The notes under the pieces are model-generated. The model was not told where the DNA came from. It did no database searches and was given only the letters and a program-made list of their open reading frames with translations. The translations under genes and the position numbers were made by a program. A DNA stretch of 64,000 nucleotides, taken from assembly GCA_903903985.1 (NCBI GenBank), contig CAIVAT010000006.1:18635-82634 (forward strand). The letters are read 5' to 3'. Below, piece after piece: positions 17,156-63,896 of this stretch; position 1 is the first letter of the stretch; each line of letters opens with the position of its first letter. This DNA is from an uncultured Bacteroidales bacterium. Lineage in GTDB: Bacteria > Bacteroidota > Bacteroidia > Bacteroidales > FEN-979.

Positions 17156-19534
17156 CTATTGAATAACCAGTTTTGCTGAACCGGTGAAATTCTCACTTTG
17201 GACACGTAAAATATACATCCCGGGAGGAATGCCTGAAATATCGAAAACATGCTCCATCATTGGATTTGTATCTCTTTTGATTGTGGCACCTAATAATTTT
17301 GTACCGAACATGTTAATGAGTTCTGCATATACATGGTCACTGACATTCCGGATAAACACCCTGAAAGTTCCATGTGCCGGATTTGGATAAACTGAAAAGT
17401 TGGCGTTCCTGGTGTGTTCCTCCAGTCCAACACAATTATCGAAGACAAATGCAATATGGATCGTTGCTGTATTGCTGCACCCATCTTTGTTGGTCACCAT
17501 GACGGAATAGGTTTGCACATCGTAACCGATTCCGGCTGTTGAAACTGTAAGATAGCGGCTTGTTGATCCGGTCGACCATGAGTAGGCGATCCCCTGGTTT
17601 CCTGCATCAAGGCGAATTGTGTCATAAATGCAAACAGAAGAATCGGCCGGACCGAGATAAACATAAGGCAAAGGATAAACCACCACGCTGGTATACCCGG
17701 TAAGCTGGTTGAAGCCATCGGAGACTACAACATGGTAAGTGGTTGTTTCATTTGGGGTAACCAGTGGATTAGCCTCCTGTGATGTAAAATCACCCGGAGC
17801 AGAACTCCAATGATAGGAATAGTTGCCGGAACCACCCCCGGATAAAACAAAAAGTTGCGCCGTATCACCGAGGCATATTGCATTGGGAGTTGAAACGGGG
17901 TTGATCGAGAGTGGTCCTCCCTCTACCGTTATGATCACCTGCGAAGGAAAACTTTCACAACCACTTGCAAGGTCTTTAACCCGGAGAATATAAATTAATG
18001 TCTGGCCCATGTTGCCCGTGGACGGGTCAGGTACCGATGAGTTAAATCCGGAAGGATTTGAAGTCCAGGAGTAGCTGTAGTTTCCATACCCTCCACTTGC
18101 GGTTCCATGCAACGTAGTGCTGGTACCATTGGCAATGGTAACATTGCTGCCGGCATCGGCCAATGGAACCGGATGGACCAAAGCGATGGTCGTATCGTAT
18201 ACCGAATGAGCACACACATCAGTTACTTTCACCGTATATATATTGGTCCCCACGGGCGGAGTAATGACAACAGTGCTGTCATTTCCCGGGATATTCCAGT
18301 AGTAATTCAATGGCATAATCCCTCCGCTGGTATTTGCCTTTAGTTCAACAGTACCGCCATAACACAGGGTTGTATCCGGATTTGGGACAAGAGACATAGG
18401 GGTATAATCATCAATGTAGACCGTATCCCTTTTGATTATTCCATCGCAGGATATCTGATTCAATGTGATGATGACCATCTTTTGGCCTTCAGGAATGTTG
18501 TCAGGAATAGGGTGGATGACAACATTGACACTATCCTGTCCTGGACGAAAAGTCACGAAATCGCCGATTGTTGAATAATCAATGCCATTCACGGCAGTGC
18601 CACCGATTGTATAATGAATGGTGTAAGGGTAATCAAGTAATGCCATCAGCCTGAAATTAATGGCAACATCATTGCATCCTTCAACTGCTTTGCTGCCAAG
18701 TTGAAGGATTGAATTGCTGTTGATCATATTTACACCCGGGCTGCTGAAACTGTTTTGTTCAAGAAAAACCCCGGAGTCCAACTTTTTATCAACCGCATCA
18801 CCGATGGCCAGTTTGATATGGTATGTTGAACAGGGTTGAACCACATGCCAGGCACTGAAAACATAGGTCAGTCCATCGTACTGGTAATATTGACCACCCG
18901 GGTTCGCCCACCTGGATGCAGTGTTCGCACAAATATTGTTGATGGTCACAAACGTGTTCATGGAACCGGGCATGAGAGCGATATTGACACTGTTGTTGGA
19001 ATAAGGTCCGCTGATCCCGGGTCCGCTGAGGAAAAATCCGAATGCGTCGTTAAATTCGTTACAATATTCGAAAAACTCCTCAGAACCAAAAACATAACGG
19101 AACCGGACTGTGTCAAATTGCGGAATGAAATCAAATTCTATCACAGCTTTGTCAAGCGTGTTTGACCCTGACAGGGAATTCAGGTCCGGGTCACCTGGTC
19201 CTCCAACCTGAGCACCTGCACCACTTTCATCATTTGGTCCAATGGCAATGCTTGCACTTCCCGTTGTCATAAGGATTCCGCCTGTCAGGCCTAACTGTGA
19301 GGCGGCAACACCTGCAGTGGCGAAGGATCCAACCTGGTTGGATGAAATGACACCCGATGTACCGTTAAATGTAACGTTACTGATGGTAATGCCTTCGCCA
19401 ACCAGGTAATTCTGAACCAATTGCTCGGGAGTCATGTTCATAGCGGAACCCTGTACCACCGTCAGTTGCGCATGTACAAGGCTGGTGAGCATCAGGCATG
19501 TTCCAATGATAAATATGTTAAAATATTTTGCCAT
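17156..19534 (-). CDS. Secreted choice-of-anchor-L domain protein with a Calx-beta-like domain, Ig-like repeats and a T9SS CTD
   Basis: GDPDLNSL...IEFDFIPQFDTVRFRYVFGSEEFFEYCNEFNDAFGFFLSGPG (choice-of-anchor L). YTIGGTAVNGIDYS...VIHPIPDNIPEG (Calx-beta-like). Tail VYPNPAHGTFRV...GMYILRV. Confidence 0.85.
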   Translation of the reverse strand: MAKYFNIFIIGTCLMLTSLVHAQLTVVQGSAMNMTPEQLVQNYLVGEGITISNVTFNGTSGVISSNQVGSFATAGVAASQLGLTGGILMTTGSASIAIGPNDESGAGAQVGGPGDPDLNSLSGSNTLDKAVIEFDFIPQFDTVRFRYVFGSEEFFEYCNEFNDAFGFFLSGPGISGPYSNNSVNIALMPGSMNTFVTINNICANTASRWANPGGQYYQYDGLTYVFSAWHVVQPCSTYHIKLAIGDAVDKKLDSGVFLEQNSFSSPGVNMINSNSILQLGSKAVEGCNDVAINFRLMALLDYPYTIHYTIGGTAVNGIDYSTIGDFVTFRPGQDSVNVVIHPIPDNIPEGQKMVIITLNQISCDGIIKRDTVYIDDYTPMSLVPNPDTTLCYGGTVELKANTSGGIMPLNYYWNIPGNDSTVVITPPVGTNIYTVKVTDVCAHSVYDTTIALVHPVPLADAGSNVTIANGTSTTLHGTASGGYGNYSYSWTSNPSGFNSSVPDPSTGNMGQTLIYILRVKDLASGCESFPSQVIITVEGGPLSINPVSTPNAICLGDTAQLFVLSGGGSGNYSYHWSSAPGDFTSQEANPLVTPNETTTYHVVVSDGFNQLTGYTSVVVYPLPYVYLGPADSSVCIYDTIRLDAGNQGIAYSWSTGSTSRYLTVSTAGIGYDVQTYSVMVTNKDGCSNTATIHIAFVFDNCVGLEEHTRNANFSVYPNPAHGTFRVFIRNVSDHVYAELINMFGTKLLGATIKRDTNPMMEHVFDISGIPPGMYILRVQSENFTGSAKLVIQ

Positions 19535-19538
19535 TTTG

Positions 19539-22500
19539 CTACTTCGCTATTTCGCTATATCCTTCTTTCATTACCTCGCTGCTCAATAATGCTTCATAAA
19601 GCACCTCAATGGGATGAAGCGCCTTTCTCCCGGTACCATCCATGATCTGGTGACGACAGGAAGTTCCGGGTGCGGCGATGATTACATCCCTTGCGGCCTT
19701 TCTGATTTCAGGGAATAACACGAGTTCTCCGACCTGCATCGACACATCATAATGTTCTTTCTCATAGCCAAATGACCCGGCCATTCCGCAACAACCCGAC
19801 TTAATTTCCTCCACCCTGTAGTTCACAGGAATTGACAGCATCCTTTTCATCGGCTCCACCGATGCCAGGGCTTTCTGATGGCAATGCCCGTGTAGTTTGA
19901 TGATCCTTTCCCGATCCGTAAAAAGTCCGGATAAGGGGTGAATATGCTCCTGCTCCTTTATGGGGGAGGACCGAGTTGGGTGTTGCAAAATAAACTCATC
20001 AAACATAAGTGCGTTCTTTGCAAGTTTTAAAGCGGCTTCTTTCAAAGGGGCATCGACCAGGTCGGGATATTCATCACGAAAAGTAAGAATCGCGGATGGT
20101 TCAATCCCAATTAACGGGGTCTCCGGTGTGATCAGGTCTTTTAACTTCTGAACATTATCATTGGCCAGCTTTTTAGCTTTTCTGATGAGTCCTTTCGAAA
20201 GAAAAGTACGGCCACTTTCACAATGATCCGGAATGAGGACGCGGTAACCGAAAGCATTGAGCAATATGATCGCCTTTATGCCAACCTCCACATCGTTGAA
20301 ATTTGAGAATTCATCAGCAAACAAATAAACGATCGGTCCTGAAGTTCCTGCGCCGGCAGCTTGTGGTGAAATTCTGCCATCGTAAAGATTTTTTACGGCC
20401 CATACACGGAGTGTAGTATTGTATAGCAATGGAACATGCCTTTCCGGTGCAAACCGAAGGAGTTTTTTTGTGATCCCTGAAAGGAATTTATTTGTCTGGA
20501 AGATATTGAAGAGGGCAGGAGATATGGTTCCCAATTTGTTGATCAGGCTGATGTTAGCGATAAGCCATGACCTGAGCGGAATTCCATTGGAGTCATACCA
20601 GTGCTGAAGGAATTCTGCTTTTAATTTGGCGATATCCACGTTCGAAGGGCATTCTGATTTGCAGGCCTTGCAGGAGAGGCAAAGATCCATCACTTCATAA
20701 ATCTCCTTATGATCAAAGGGATTCGTTTTGGATGAATTGGTGAGGAACTCCCTGAGAATGTTCGCTCTTGCACGGGTAGAAGTATTTTCATCTTTTACAG
20801 CCATATACGACGGACACATATATCGGCCGGTGATCACGGTGTTACGGCAGTCGCCTGAGCCGTTGCACTGTTCTGCCGCACGCAGGATCCCATGGCTTCC
20901 CGAAAAATCAAATGTTGTCGGGATGTCACGCGATGGTTTTCCAGGCACAAACCGCAGGCTGGTATTCATTTTAGGAGTATCAACAATTTTATTGGGATTA
21001 AAAATGTTTCCCGGATCCCAAACCTCCTTTATACTCTTGAACAGGTCGTAATTCTTCTGTCCGAGCATGAATGGGATAAATTCACCTCGCAGCCTGCCAT
21101 CGCCGTGTTCTCCTGAGAGCGATCCATTGAATTTTTTCACCAGTTTTGCTGTCTCCTGGGCTACGGTATGAAAGAGTTCAACATCTGCAGGATCTTTGAG
21201 ATTCAGTACAGGCCGGAGATGCAGCTCCCCTGAACCGACATGGGCGTAATAAACGCAGTCAAGTCCCAACCGGGCAAGCATAGTATTGAATTCTCCGATA
21301 TACTCAGGAAGTACTTCCGGGTTTACAGCGGTGTCTTCTGTTACCGGAACAGGCTTACGGTCGCCGGGATAGTTGGAAAGCACTCCCAGTCCTGCCTTAC
21401 GCAGATCCCAAACTTTTTTAACATCCGGCGGAAAGATGATCGGGAAGTGATATCCAAGGCCGGCAGCGCGCATCTCTGCTTCAAGCCGGTGAAAAATGTC
21501 CATGATCTCCTCCCTTGAATCGCGGGCAAACTCAACAATCAGGATTGCCCCGGGATCGCCATCAATGAAAAAACGGTTCTGCCGCTGCGTAATGTTATCT
21601 TTGGTGCAGTCCATGATGGCTTTATCCATCAATTCCACCGACCCCGGTTGATATTTTAATGCTACAAGATTGGCTTTCAATGATTCAGCAATAGTGTGGC
21701 AATGAATACACACCAGGGCTTTCTCCACCGGAGGCAATGGAACAAGGTTCAGTTTTATTTCGGTGATAAACATGAGCGTACCTTCACTGCCGGCAATAAG
21801 TTTGCTGAAGTTGAACCGAGACGGGTGACGGGTGACGGGTGACGGGAATCCTGATATATGTGATTCGTGAAGGGTGGTGGCTGATTCATAATTTGGTTCC
21901 AGGTGATTTTCACTTGTCACCCGGATCGCATCACCTTCAAATGGTTCTGTTTCCAGCAGCAGGTCAAGCGCATAACCGGTATTTCTCCTGTGAATAGAAG
22001 GATCAGGGTATTCTTTGCGGATGTTTTCCTGTGTCGCGGGGTCTGAAAGAATTTCATGTATTTGCCGGTAGATTTTATTTTCAAGAGCATTCCCCTGGCA
22101 TTTGTTCCTGAACTCATCTGTGGAAAGTTCCTTAAATTCCACGTCGGAGCCATCACTCAGGAACCCTTTTACAGAAATCACGTGATCACGGGTACTGCCA
22201 TAAAGGATTGAGTGGGCTCCGCAGGAATTGTTTCCAACCATGCCCCCCATCATGCAACGGCTTGAGGTACTTGTTTCGGGGCCAAAGAAAAGGCTGTATT
22301 TTTCAACTGCTTTGTTGAGTTCATCCAGGATCACCCCGGGTTGTACACGGACCCATTTTTCGGCGGGATTGATTTCCAGGATGTTGGTCATATAACGCGA
22401 TATGTCCACTACCAGTCCCTGCCCGACCACCTGACCGGCAAGGGAGGTGCCTGCTGCACGTGGAATCAGGGGGATTTTTATTTCATTTGAGAACCGGATC

Positions 22501-22676
22501 AGTTTCTGAATGTCCGATGAATTCCTGGGACGGGCCACCCCTGCCGGGACTTCGCGATAGGCAGATGCATCGGTGGCATAAAGCAGCAGTTGAATTTCAT
22601 CAGTATAAATCTCCCCCTCGAGGTCAGGCAGTAATTTTGCTATTTTTTCAATAAACTCTTTATGCTGCATCATCAT
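19539..22676 (-). CDS. YdiJ-like fusion: FAD-linked (PCMH-type) oxidase + 4Fe-4S + cysteine-rich GlcF/GlpC-like domain; probable D-2-hydroxyacid dehydrogenase
   Basis: 1045 aa. FAD-binding N-terminal half (IPRAAGTSLAGQVVG, GSEGTLMFITE). CLSCKACKSECP Fe-S motif. C-terminal CCG-type motifs (HGHCHQKA, SGCCGMAG). Confidence 0.85.
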   Translation of the reverse strand: MMMQHKEFIEKIAKLLPDLEGEIYTDEIQLLLYATDASAYREVPAGVARPRNSSDIQKLIRFSNEIKIPLIPRAAGTSLAGQVVGQGLVVDISRYMTNILEINPAEKWVRVQPGVILDELNKAVEKYSLFFGPETSTSSRCMMGGMVGNNSCGAHSILYGSTRDHVISVKGFLSDGSDVEFKELSTDEFRNKCQGNALENKIYRQIHEILSDPATQENIRKEYPDPSIHRRNTGYALDLLLETEPFEGDAIRVTSENHLEPNYESATTLHESHISGFPSPVTRHPSRFNFSKLIAGSEGTLMFITEIKLNLVPLPPVEKALVCIHCHTIAESLKANLVALKYQPGSVELMDKAIMDCTKDNITQRQNRFFIDGDPGAILIVEFARDSREEIMDIFHRLEAEMRAAGLGYHFPIIFPPDVKKVWDLRKAGLGVLSNYPGDRKPVPVTEDTAVNPEVLPEYIGEFNTMLARLGLDCVYYAHVGSGELHLRPVLNLKDPADVELFHTVAQETAKLVKKFNGSLSGEHGDGRLRGEFIPFMLGQKNYDLFKSIKEVWDPGNIFNPNKIVDTPKMNTSLRFVPGKPSRDIPTTFDFSGSHGILRAAEQCNGSGDCRNTVITGRYMCPSYMAVKDENTSTRARANILREFLTNSSKTNPFDHKEIYEVMDLCLSCKACKSECPSNVDIAKLKAEFLQHWYDSNGIPLRSWLIANISLINKLGTISPALFNIFQTNKFLSGITKKLLRFAPERHVPLLYNTTLRVWAVKNLYDGRISPQAAGAGTSGPIVYLFADEFSNFNDVEVGIKAIILLNAFGYRVLIPDHCESGRTFLSKGLIRKAKKLANDNVQKLKDLITPETPLIGIEPSAILTFRDEYPDLVDAPLKEAALKLAKNALMFDEFILQHPTRSSPIKEQEHIHPLSGLFTDRERIIKLHGHCHQKALASVEPMKRMLSIPVNYRVEEIKSGCCGMAGSFGYEKEHYDVSMQVGELVLFPEIRKAARDVIIAAPGTSCRHQIMDGTGRKALHPIEVLYEALLSSEVMKEGYSEIAK
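21818..21924. repeat. Family C 'GGGTGAC' word element lying in frame inside the YdiJ-like CDS
   Basis: gagacGGGTGACGGGTGACGGGTGACGGgaatcc ... cacttGTCACCCGgatc has inverted ends. It encodes about 36-39 aa (GDAIRVTSENHLEPNYESATTLHESHISGFPSPVTRHPS) just before the conserved FN..KL.AGSEGTL block. Confidence 0.6.
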
Positions 22677-24901: not shown

Positions 24902-25027
24902 GATTCAGGATTTACGATTTACGATTGAAGTGCTGATTTCAGGTTTCGGTACAAGAATTTTCTTTTCGATTTACCGGGGCATTTGGTTCTTCAAAAATCG
25001 AAAATCCAAAATCGTATATCCGAAAAC
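24902..25027. repeat. Family A MITE-like spacer element with TTACGAT-word inverted ends
   Basis: The left end is ggatttacgatttacgattgaag. The reverse complement of the right end is ggatatacgattttggattttcgatttttgaag. It is the same family as 59454-59582. Confidence 0.65.
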
Positions 25028-42588: not shown

Positions 42589-42628
42589 TGGTGTTTATTG
42601 TTTTAAAGGGGTAAAACCTTGTCCCGGG

Positions 42629-43846
42629 TCACGCGTCACCTGTTACGTAACGTGACAGGACCACGGCAGAATTATTTCCGCCAAATCCGAACGAATTGGA
42701 CAGAACGTGGCGTATCGATGCGTTATGGTTGGTTGTTACCGGCCTGTTGTGCAATTCCTTCATCGGGATCGAAAAACCCAGGTTGGAAAAAACAACCTGG
42801 TGTTTCAACGCCAGGACAGAGATCACGGCTTCAACAGCCCCGGCGGCTCCGAGTGTATGTCCGGTAAATCCTTTGGTAGAACTGTAGGGTGGCACATGTT
42901 CCCCGAAGATACGCTCGATGGCAATCCCTTCGGAGAGGTCGTTGTTTTGCGTACCGGTGCCGTGTACGTTGATGTAATCGATGTCGTTGGGCTGAAGTTT
43001 GCTCATGGCAATGGCTTTCGACATGGCCATGAAGGCCCCTGTGCCGTCGGGCGAAGAGGCCGTTTGATGGTATGCATCATTGGCATTGCCATAGCCTGAA
43101 ACTTCCGCCAGGATGTTTTTCCCATCTTTCATGACAACCTCTTCCGATTCCAGTACCAGGAAAGCTGCTCCTTCGCCCAGCGTGAGCCCGGCCCTGTTTT
43201 CGTCAAAGGGATGGCAACCGGTTTTGTCCAGGATCATCAGGGTATTGAAACCATTGAGCGTGAATCTGGTAACGGCATCGGTACCACCCACTACCACTCG
43301 GTCAAGTTGACCGGTTTTGATGAGGTTCGAGCCGAACATCAGGGCATTTACCGATGAGGAGCAGGCCGTGCTGATGGTGGTGACCAGGTCGCTGATCCCC
43401 AGGTGGCTGGCAATCCGTTCGGTGCTGTCGCCACAGTCGTGGTTCACCACATCGATGAGGCGGCCTCTGGCTGGATCGGAGAGGAATGACGCGTAGAAAT
43501 CTTCGCTCCGGTCCATGCCGCCAACGGTAGATGCAGAAATAAGACCGGTTTTATATTGATGGATATTGCTGATTCCAGCTGATCCCAGCGCTTCCTTTGC
43601 AGCCTTCATCCCCAGCAGGGCGGTACGGGTGAGATTTTTTTTGCCTGCCTTGCCAACCTCTTCAAGCAATTCTTCTGTGGTCATTTTTACTTCGGCCATG
43701 GGGATGATCCCCTTATGCATAGTGTTAAACAATGTAATTTCTCCTATTCCTGTTTTCCCGGCAAGCAGGGATTGGAATGTTTCTTCAACATTTTTCCCGA
43801 TGGCACATACAATCCCGATGCCGGTAATAAAAACCCGTTTTGACAT
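42629..43846 (-). CDS. Beta-ketoacyl-ACP synthase (FabF-like KS)
   Basis: [12 protein letters not shown] (Cys nucleophile), [11 protein letters not shown] and [14 protein letters not shown]. Confidence 0.9.
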
Positions 43847-54613: not shown

Positions 54614-55956
54614 AAGGATCCTTTGCGTTTTCGTTTTCGCATGCGGTTCATTGCTGTTGCAACATCCTCATCAGGGAAAACCCATCTGCGCCCTGTATTG
54701 AGGGCACGTTCCTTGAGTGTTGCATAGTCGATGCCGGGAGCAATATAATATACCGGGGTCAGCAGGTTGTCGTCAGCATGAATGATTCCCTGTTCAATTG
54801 CAATTTTATGCAGTACGGTCCCTGGATAGATCCGCATGCCGATAAAGGGAAAAAAAACAGTATTTTCAATACGTTTTGAATTTTCAAAACTCTCATTGAT
54901 GGTTGCCTCCGTCTCGCCATAACCGCCGATGATCATGAAGTGGCAGAAATAGATCCCTGCCTGGTTGCAATAATCAGAAACCCTTATAACTTCCTCCACA
55001 TCAAAGTGTTTACCATATTTTTTCAAAGTGGTGTCGGAAAGTGATTCAGTGCCGAATTCGATATGTGTGAGCCCGGCTTCTGCAAACAATTTTAAATTTT
55101 CCAACGACAAATTATGCGGAGAAAAGTATGCTCCCCAGTGCATCGGAAGTTCGGCGGCGATCATCTTTTTAGCCAGTTCCACATTAAAATTGTTGCTGAT
55201 GTTGAACACTGAATCGGTAAAAAAGACATAATCAACCTTGTACTTTTCATAAAGCTGCCGCAATGTATGAACAATTTTATCCGGATCGAGCGTCCGCACA
55301 TTGTGGCCTTCAATGAGGGGATAGGTGCAATAAATGCAGTTATACGGGCATCCCCGCTTGGTCTGCACATTGACCATGCCTGCCTTATCCCAGTAAAATT
55401 CCAGGAGGTCTGTGTCAAAATCGAGGTCAGGAGTTTTGATGAAGTGTTGCCTGCCGTTCATATGGATCCCTTCTCCATCGCGGTACACAAGACCCTCAAT
55501 GAGAAGATCCGGGTTGCCCCTTTCAAGGCTGAGCAGGAGGTGGTAAAGGCTCTCTTCACCCTCACCCTGTATTCCATAATCGGGGTCAAGGTAGGAAAAT
55601 AATTCACGGGGATAAATGGAGAAGGCAGAACCACCAATGATCAGGCAGGTACTTGAAGTGTCGCGCACGATATCTGCAACCGACTTGTAACCATTGATGA
55701 AACTCTCCTGGCTGTAAAAATTCACATCATCGACATTCCGCAGGGACAGGCCAACATAATCCGGTTGAAAATCGCGGAGGCAGGCTCTGAAGGAATCGGG
55801 CACCTGGAGGTTGAAATCGAATATCCGTATATCGAAATCAGGGAGACGTTCGCTGAGGTAAGTGAAAAGGTATGAAATGCCCAATGGATAAACCGGGTAA
55901 GGATTGACATACCTGTTGGCCGAAACAAAGAGTAGTTTTTTCCCCGGCATTTTCAA
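54592..55956 (-). CDS. B12-binding-domain radical SAM protein
   Basis: N-terminal B12-binding-like domain and the radical SAM motif CPYNCIYC. Confidence 0.85.
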   Translation of the reverse strand: MKMPGKKLLFVSANRYVNPYPVYPLGISYLFTYLSERLPDFDIRIFDFNLQVPDSFRACLRDFQPDYVGLSLRNVDDVNFYSQESFINGYKSVADIVRDTSSTCLIIGGSAFSIYPRELFSYLDPDYGIQGEGEESLYHLLLSLERGNPDLLIEGLVYRDGEGIHMNGRQHFIKTPDLDFDTDLLEFYWDKAGMVNVQTKRGCPYNCIYCTYPLIEGHNVRTLDPDKIVHTLRQLYEKYKVDYVFFTDSVFNISNNFNVELAKKMIAAELPMHWGAYFSPHNLSLENLKLFAEAGLTHIEFGTESLSDTTLKKYGKHFDVEEVIRVSDYCNQAGIYFCHFMIIGGYGETEATINESFENSKRIENTVFFPFIGMRIYPGTVLHKIAIEQGIIHADDNLLTPVYYIAPGIDYATLKERALNTGRRWVFPDEDVATAMNRMRKRKRKGSLWHHLKM

Positions 55957-59453: not shown

Positions 59454-59582
59454 GCAATTTTCGATTTACGAATTTCGATTTATGGTTTAAGAGTTGATTT
59501 TATATTCTCCTTTTAATAGTTTTCTCTATGATTTTAGGAAAAGTACTTTTTCCCAAGCGTAAATCCCAAATCGTAAATCCAA
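59454..59582. repeat. Family A MITE-like spacer element
   Basis: The left end is tcgatttacgaatttcgattta. The reverse complement of the right end is ggatttacgatttgggatttacgc. Confidence 0.6.
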
Positions 59583-61322: not shown

Positions 61323-61396
61323 GGCCCCGTAGCTCAACTGAATAGAGCATCTGACTACGGATCAGAAGGTTGGGGGTTTGAATCCCTCCGGGGTCA
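61323..61396 (+). tRNA. tRNA-Arg (anticodon ACG)
   Basis: 74-nt cloverleaf by hand: acceptor GGCCCCG/CGGGGTC, D-arm GCTC..GAGC, anticodon stem TCTGA/TCAGA with loop CTACGGA, T-arm GGGGG-TTTGAAT-CCCTC (one internal G-T pair). CCA is not encoded. Confidence 0.9.
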
Positions 61397-63297: not shown

Positions 63298-63344
63298 GAC
63301 GAACGGGCAATGTGCTGTAAATAAGCAGGATGCAGGCCTGATCC

Positions 63345-63450
63345 CCTGTCACCCTGTTCCCCTGTCACCCTGTCACCCTGTTACCCTGTCACCCTGTCAC
63401 CCTGTCACCCTGTCACCCTGTTACCCTGTCACCCTGTTACCCTGTCACCC
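63345..63450. repeat. Tandem array of 13 copies of an 8-bp unit (CCTGTCAC, with variants CCTGTTAC and CCTGTTCC)
   Basis: Counted directly: units start at 63345 and then every 8 nt up to 63448. Confidence 0.95.
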
Positions 63451-63896
63451 TTCCAGGTGGCAAGCACGCATCCGACCGCGCTCAGTCCGCAGAGGAACAG
63501 GGTATTGCTCCCTGTGGTTTTGATGACCTTGTCAAGGTCGGTCTTGTTGAAGCCGTCGGCGTAGGTTTTAAGCACTTTCGGATCGGTGGGCAGGATCTTT
63601 ACCGTTGCGGGGTATTCAAACCCTTCGGAGCCTGGAGTGACGCCATATTCATCATTGGTTTGGTAGACCCTGATAACAGGGTAGCCATGTTTGCGAAAGA
63701 GGTCGATCAATGCGTTGATGTATTCCATCGCCATCTCCTTATCCGGGAACATCCTCGGCAGGAAGGCTTTCTGGATGTCGATCACCAGCAGGGCGGGATT
63801 GATGGGTTCTTTAGGCTTTTCGGCTTTATCCTGGGCAAAGGATGGCATGGCAACGACCATTAACAGGATGGCCAGGAAGGTGGTCAGTTTTTTCAT
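63429..63896 (-). CDS. Secreted isochorismatase-family (cysteine hydrolase) protein, 3'-truncated by the 8-bp array (possible pseudogene)
   Basis: Signal peptide, LLVIDIQKAF and the catalytic-Cys block LFLCGLSAVGCVLAT. The ORF then runs straight into the repeat (WKGDRVTG-stop). The usual ~40-50 C-terminal residues are missing. Confidence 0.65.
   Translation of the reverse strand: MKKLTTFLAILLMVVAMPSFAQDKAEKPKEPINPALLVIDIQKAFLPRMFPDKEMAMEYINALIDLFRKHGYPVIRVYQTNDEYGVTPGSEGFEYPATVKILPTDPKVLKTYADGFNKTDLDKVIKTTGSNTLFLCGLSAVGCVLATWKGDRVTG

Follow-up and report, generated by a model that had tools for sequence, protein, structure and literature searches.

In the genome of an uncultured Bacteroidales bacterium of the GTDB lineage FEN-979 (assembly GCA_903903985.1), a gene for a YdiJ-like FAD-binding and 4Fe-4S oxidoreductase carries a 109-nt segment built of 7-nt units, which would be translated in frame as part of the protein. 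The gene lies in a stretch of 64,000 nt (positions 18,635 to 82,634 of contig CAIVAT010000006.1), hereafter the window, to which all coordinates given without a contig label refer. The word of the insert is a tandem 7-nt repeat, GTCAC(C/G)C. Comparison with homologues indicates that this conserved FAD dehydrogenase has acquired the segment as an in-frame insertion specific to the lineage, and that the loop harboring it is a recurrent hotspot, carrying different arrays in different species. We consider it likely that the insert is a neutral, translated heptamer array that has grown in situ at this loop.

Anatomy of the insert and its host gene

The host gene occupies positions 19539..22676 on the minus strand and encodes a 1045-aa protein in an open reading frame (ORF) without a stop, its assignment being based on the translation, Pfam domains and fold matches. 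The domains are FAD_binding_4 (residues 44-179), FAD-oxidase_C (323-564) and Fer4_17/Fer4_8 (601-681), and the protein has two 4Fe-4S motifs. The top structural matches are D-lactate and D-2-hydroxyglutarate dehydrogenases; these being its best structural relatives, we regard the protein as a YdiJ-like enzyme.

Between the invariant anchors GYALDLL and FNFSKLIAGSEG there is a hypervariable loop, which in this genome comprises 141 nt, or 47 codons (21816..21956, minus strand), and the heptamer-built insert occupies 109 nt of it (21816..21924, minus strand). On the coding strand the insert reads CCGGGTGAC, about 70 nt and then (GTCACCC)x3 GTCTCGG, all of it stop-free; with the adjacent codons, the DNA reads GAT CCG GGT GAC AAG TGA AAA TCA CC ... 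GGATTCCC GTCACCC GTCACCC GTCACCC GTCTCGG TTCAAC. The translation of the region within the ORF is ...GYALDLLLETEPFEGDAIRVTSENHLEPNYESATTLHESHISGFPSPVTRHPSRFNFSKLIAGSEGTL..., and the tryptic peptide from it is VTSENHLEPNYESATTLHESHISGFPSPVTR. A previous model-made description of the same DNA, prepared without database searches (the sequence-only reading), had reported three tandem GGGTGAC heptamers, some 70 nt and then the inverted word inside this coding sequence, and had given the segment as stop-free together with its peptide. Both statements were confirmed, the former by Tandem Repeats Finder (TRF), by word counts and by three assemblies, the latter by the translation of the 1045-aa ORF.

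The perfect array at 21820..21846 (minus strand) appears as (GACGGGT)x3.9 on the plus strand and as (GTCACCC)x3 on the coding strand, where it is translated as SPVTRHPS; its TRF score is 54, with 100% matches. The 14-mer GGGTGACGGGTGAC occurs twice, against 0.04 expected occurrences. At the other end of the insert, the inverted word CGGGTGAC (21916..21923 on the minus strand, seen on the coding strand and translated as R-V-T) forms a short left arm; of its five occurrences in the window, where 0.96 would be expected, four are at the insert. The inverted arms match over 14 nt at 86% complementarity (21829-21842 / 21910-21923), or over 30 nt at 77% if the conserved flanking codons are counted in. 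The DNA of the 141-nt loop folds with -18.5 kcal/mol (z = -2.17), and six of 200 shuffled sequences fold as well as that; hence, the hairpin is a modest one. A scan of the window at the Rfam gathering thresholds yielded only a tRNA at 61323-61396, and no known RNA family at the insert.

The tract between the arms (21847..21915, minus strand) looks like a spacer of about 70 nt. Outside the perfect array, the remaining 81 nt, at 21847-21924, have a lag-7 autocorrelation of 0.43 (shuffle p = 0.0007), which is higher than in every window of equal length in the rest of the gene (maximum 0.378). The apparent spacer is 7-periodic and is therefore a decayed heptamer array; a degenerate second inverted unit, AAGTGAA, lies inside it at 21909-21915.

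The two polarities of the word are not equivalent for a coding sequence. An array of GTCACCC has no stop in any of the three frames and encodes V-T-R-H-P-S-P, whereas an array of at least three GGGTGAC units produces TGA in every frame. As longer GGGTGAC arrays create an in-frame TGA, the inverted arm on the coding strand is limited to one or two units, and the left arm seen here consists of GGGTGAC and then AAGTGAA. Compared with the 36-nt loop of other genera, there are 105 additional nt, equal to 15 heptamers or 35 codons; we note the match to 15 whole units and give it no weight in the argument.

The complete YdiJ-like gene was found with no mismatches in two further assemblies (from JGI and ENA samples), so that three independent assemblies are identical. 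Because the whole gene is the same in assemblies from other samples, the insert sequence is real rather than an assembly artefact, and it is fixed at this sampling.

A 953-nt Logan contig of ERR4194899 (L062) agrees with the gene as far as the second heptamer unit, beyond which it differs. This divergence inside the array is probably the tip of an assembly; it could also reflect heterogeneity of the array.

The loop across homologues and in the predicted structure

For the comparison, the orthologue was taken from 29 related genomes, and the stretch between the two invariant anchors was compared in 30 genome loci and 118 database homologues. In other genera of the order this stretch comprises 12 residues, within the genus 5-56 and here 47; among the 118 database homologues, which come from metagenomes, it varies from 5 to 93 residues. 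The reading frame is kept in all 30 genome loci and in the database homologues. The 12-residue loops of other genera have nothing equivalent to the insert, hence its description above as lineage-specific. The alignment to homologues proposed in the sequence-only reading has thus borne out the insertion, and an equivalent segment in homologues lacking the repeat, which that reading had named as grounds for abandoning it, was found in none.

At the DNA level, the longer loops consist of short tandem arrays, and each species has its own. G023 has (TTTCCAA)n and (GTCCACCC)n; G014 has (GGGACRC)n opposite (GYGTCCC)n; both G010 and G020 have (AAATGCA)n and (AATCAGTC)n, and G005 has (GTTCACCC)x4. The arrays are read in all three frames, which yields peptides with a period of seven or eight residues; among the 53 loops of at least 25 residues, the strongest self-match of the peptide is at lag 7 or 8 in 20. 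When the loop columns are left out of the tree, its sister sequences often prove wholly unlike each other both in the length and in the content of the loop.

The nearest sequence in this tree with DNA at hand, P0009 (L039), has GGTCACGCGTCACGTGTCACG at the same position. This is a direct array (GTCACGN)x3, built of a sister word and lacking an inverted arm, and its presence at the same site points to turnover of arrays in situ. The sequences of a subclade have a common motif, ...RVTRH.SR, directly before FNF; thus, a small GTCACNN array was probably already present in the ancestor of the subclade.

An AlphaFold2 model of the protein, built on 109 homologues, has a mean predicted local distance difference test score (pLDDT) of 82.4 and a predicted template modelling score (pTM) of 0.81. 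Model residues 248-282 (250-284 in the numbering of the 1045-aa protein), which are exactly the insert, have pLDDT below 50 and form a coil without secondary structure. The insert follows a helical region (approximately 181-246) that is missing from the solved D-lactate dehydrogenase relatives, and precedes the strand FNF.... We place the insert in a floppy, permissive surface loop that is predicted to be disordered; a check for a surface loop had been suggested in the sequence-only reading. No solved YdiJ structure was found for mapping the loop, and the best structure matches lack the whole region 181-280. A second loop of low confidence in the model (900-908) is likewise hypervariable in homologues.

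Heptamer arrays elsewhere in the genome

The genome (5.2 Mb, 87% complete) contains 708 TRF arrays with a period of 6-9 and at least 2.5 copies, among them 302 with period 7 and 196 with period 8. Most (548/708) lie outside long ORFs, the other 160 being located in frames that stay open to either side for no fewer than 80 codons. Within 200 nt, 35 arrays have an exact inverted partner and eight a direct one.

The word pair GTCACNNGTCAC (GTCACNN-GTCAC) occurs at 70 loci of the genome compared to 5-11 in shuffled sequences, and 13 of these loci are within long ORFs. A genome-wide census of the word, suggested in the sequence-only reading, has thus placed it in frame in further conserved genes as well. 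According to Pfam, the word-bearing ORFs encode alanyl-tRNA synthetase, DNA polymerase III alpha (DnaE), IspG and Mfd, as well as an M17 aminopeptidase, an NAD-epimerase, an amino-acid permease and an Fe-S protein, and the local peptides include CVTRHVSQ, HASRVTRH and KRVTRHAS. The alignment of IspG with the structure 3noy has 20 extra residues near KRVTRHAS, the exact insertion point being ambiguous. Colonisation of ORFs by this word family is therefore real, the recurring item being a 7-nt word rather than an element of conserved sequence.

Longer arrays are found in frame too. The MurB gene (L072, G000:C34:102942-103046; G000 is the genome studied here) contains 13 units of the 8-mer CTGTTACC, which encode a repeated QGNRVTGL; this array is situated between the FAD-binding and the C-terminal domains, at a junction analogous to the YdiJ site. 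The ORF of DNA polymerase III alpha (L069, G000:C178:55159-58263) contains four in-frame arrays of 7-8 nt, at 55579, 55613, 57562 and 57786.

Two other places in the window, 63345-63450 and 42628-42659, had been assigned to the same word in the sequence-only reading, which is right in part. At 63344-63451, between convergent genes, there is an 8-bp array of 13.5 units (CCCTGTCA/CCCTGTTA), and its unit is GTCACCC plus a T. A minus-strand ORF (63429-63896) stops inside this array, so that its last residues, KGDRVTG, are array-encoded, and the same 8-mer family also flanks a PF05635 gene at G000:C18:200876. The site GGGTCACGCGTCACCTG at 42628-42659 is one of the 70 loci with GTCACNNGTCAC. The window also contains two spacers of about 125 nt (24902-25027 and 59454-59582) bounded by inverted heptamer words of the TTACGAT type. 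Their architecture is the same as that of the YdiJ insert, and their family (AAATCGT), which has 71 arrays, outnumbers every other 7-mer array family of the genome.

The arrays are also associated with a family of small genes. PF05635 (the '23S rRNA intervening sequence protein', a four-helix bundle) is considered a homologue of Avd, which is an accessory protein found with diversity-generating retroelements (PMC10053308). Five of the eight PF05635 matches in the genome have arrays of 7-8 nt on both sides, in inverted orientation (L031, C18:200876; L033, C166:15150; L035, C139:29742; L036, C57:138849; L038, C54:8458). In four of these loci the arms are clearly inverted copies of each other, whereas in L036 the match is approximate; examples are (GACAATT)x4.7 / (AATTGTC)x10.6 and (AGGGTAAC)x5 / (ACCCTGTT)x3.6. 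Four of the five flanking words, AACAGGGT, AAAATGC, AATTGAC and AATATTC, are also at the top of the ranking of array families in the genome. At a density of approximately one array per 10 kb, a rough estimate is that far fewer than 1% of random sites would have an array within 450 nt on each side.

Of the 22 PF05635 loci in three (GGGTGAC)n-rich congeners, 15 carry arrays on both flanks. One of them (L076, G052:C77) has the structure (GTGACGG)x17.6 - PF05635 gene - (TCACCCG)x14.6, with GGGTGAC and GCGTGAC units mixed, and its arms agree with the YdiJ insert in both word and polarity. Similar arms surround PF05635 genes in G023 (L079, G023:C165) and G053 (L084, G053:C9), and in the three congeners the flanking arrays of GGGTGAC/GCGTGAC and their complement reach up to 30 units. 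No PF05635 cassette with GTCACCC/GGGTGAC arms is assembled in the genome studied here.

Origin of the insert and alternative explanations

Two classes of known repeats are relevant here. Heptanucleotide repeats are the commonest class of long simple sequence repeats (SSRs) in many bacteria, and polymerase slippage has been proposed as their cause; they have been reported, for the most part in intergenic DNA, in cyanobacteria, Xanthomonas, Beggiatoaceae and a few Bacteroidetes, examples of these and of the cyanobacterial short tandemly repeated repetitive (STRR) type being the heptanucleotides of Calothrix and the TAACTGA repeats of Beggiatoaceae, Cyanobacteria and five Bacteroidetes (PMC4679880, PMC4692102). 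The insert resembles them in having tandem 7-nt units beyond chance expectation, with lineage-specific words, slippage as the proposed cause, and similar arrays dispersed over many loci of the genome, mostly outside genes and near gene ends. However, here the arrays often form inverted pairs, reside in frame in conserved enzymes at recurrent loop hotspots, and share their word with the flanks of PF05635 genes, whereas the repeats described in PMC4679880 and PMC4692102 are mainly intergenic, and no such behaviour is described there for Bacteroidota. Our literature search for in-frame heptamer repeats in Bacteroidota found nothing relevant.

The second class is that of Rickettsia palindromic elements (RPEs), families of copies of approximately 150 bp residing in frame in Rickettsia genes, with 44 insertions in R. 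conorii (Ogata et al., as far as summarised in PMC10969869). RPE-like behaviour had been proposed for the insert in the sequence-only reading. The insert is like an RPE in its size range (approximately 100-150 nt), an apparent palindromic tendency and its stop-free, in-frame position in an unrelated metabolic gene, at a tolerant site compatible with the fold. Unlike RPEs, whose copies share a conserved sequence and peptide, it is single-copy and built of simple repeats, and only its 7-nt word recurs. A sensitive blastn search of the own genome, 87% complete, with a 171-nt segment returned only the locus itself; a DNA search of 39 congeners yielded matches to the heptamer array (query positions 18-47) and none to the centre; and no direct repeat that could be a target-site duplication was found at the borders of the insert. 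[quoted passage not shown] Thus, the in-frame insertion and the dispersed word of the original proposal stand, and the dispersed conserved copies and the target-site duplication do not. We describe the segment as a heptamer-array, STRR-like insert with RPE-like in-frame residence in a tolerant loop, probably neutral.

Two other sources of the sequence were considered and rejected. Local alignments to 90 nt of coding DNA on each side of the insert, on both strands, gave p of 0.4-0.9, which leaves no indication of duplicated flanking DNA. Comparison of the 72-nt centre with three PF05635 cassettes, as would be appropriate for an internal-deletion derivative, gave p of approximately 0.02-0.8 in six tests, none of them significant after correction.

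Neutrality of the insert is suggested by the fact that its sequence is not conserved and its structure is predicted to be disordered. Growth in situ would presumably have proceeded by slippage, and several observations weigh against it. No relative is close enough to show an empty or an intermediate state, and both growth in situ and the arrival of a ready-made hairpin fit the data. The architecture, with inverted arms about 70 nt apart and about 105 nt overall, is that of the gene-less hairpin elements of the genome. In G010 (L050) and G020 (L051), the YdiJ loop is occupied by a multi-copy composite repeat (a (GGCATTA)n core combined with a heptamer arm and (AATCAGTC)n), which is present at no fewer than ten other loci per genome, with core identity of 72-86%, both between genes and in another long ORF, and a composite of this type occurs in two different loops of one protein in P0057 and in P0061. 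Hence, insertion of the element type does occur in the YdiJ loop of congeners. The corresponding explanation is that a preformed heptamer-armed hairpin, RPE- or MITE-like and a gene-less relative of the PF05635 cassettes, was inserted as a unit and has since diverged. The composites speak for it, as do the word and polarity shared with the PF05635 arms of G052 (and similarly of G023 and G053), the arrays on both sides of PF05635 genes here and in the three congeners, and the size of the insert, which is within the range of the paired arrays of the genome. Nevertheless, we consider it unlikely: besides the single-copy core, matchless in 39 congeners, and the lack of a visible target-site duplication, the core is unlike the inner parts of the PF05635 cassettes and is itself heptamer-periodic, the left arm consists of just one or two units, and the nearest relative with DNA, P0009, has a direct array only.

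The insert could also be a contingency locus for phase variation, in which gain or loss of one 7-nt unit would shift the frame and switch the dehydrogenase off or on. Three perfect non-triplet units inside an ORF would suit such a switch, and heptanucleotide repeats are known substrates of slippage (Mrazek et al. 2007, in the summary given in PMC4679880). Yet three units are short for efficient slippage, the copy number is identical in three independent assemblies, the frame is kept by the 30 genome loci and the database homologues, and the host is a redox enzyme of a housekeeping type rather than a surface structure, which makes this explanation highly improbable. Hardly more probable is adaptive insertion, with the 35 extra residues serving as a functional linker, a docking site or a regulatory segment. 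Many members of the genus do have the loop in one form or another, kept in frame, and the site follows a YdiJ-specific helical subdomain; on the other hand, even sister taxa agree neither in its sequence nor in its length, in some members hardly any loop is left (5 aa), the repeat word sets the composition, and the segment is predicted to be disordered.

The explanation that we prefer, a neutral array grown in situ, can be put as follows. The genus would make and turn over arrays of 7-8 nt throughout its genomes, many of them paired as the inverted arms of hairpins and some bracketing small PF05635 genes. Within conserved genes, the survivors would be frame-keeping, stop-free arrays at positions where the fold tolerates added residues. 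The YdiJ loop would be such a position, and hence would carry different arrays in different species. Here, a small ancestral GTCACNN array may have been expanded by slippage to +105 nt and then mostly decayed, with the lineages diverging separately, and the three perfect GTCACCC units would be the latest expansion.

More speculatively, and with considerable doubt, the hairpins of the genus, including the insert, might be non-autonomous products of an undescribed self-propagating system, whose gene-bearing form would be the PF05635 cassette with arrays of the same word. If so, the seeding and expansion of arrays would keep rewriting permissive loops of conserved proteins, as a Bacteroidota counterpart of RPE-driven protein evolution. 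The link between array words and PF05635 makes the function of these small four-helix-bundle genes, an old puzzle, testable.

For annotation, segments of this kind should be taken neither for functional domains nor for assembly errors. Non-triplet, microsatellite-type arrays of 7-nt units can persist in conserved enzymes, for which a disordered loop, a kept frame and a stop-free orientation are needed. As a single loop serves as a recurrent landing pad in more than 100 homologues, it provides a natural experiment on how the dynamics of repeats make and erase segments of proteins.

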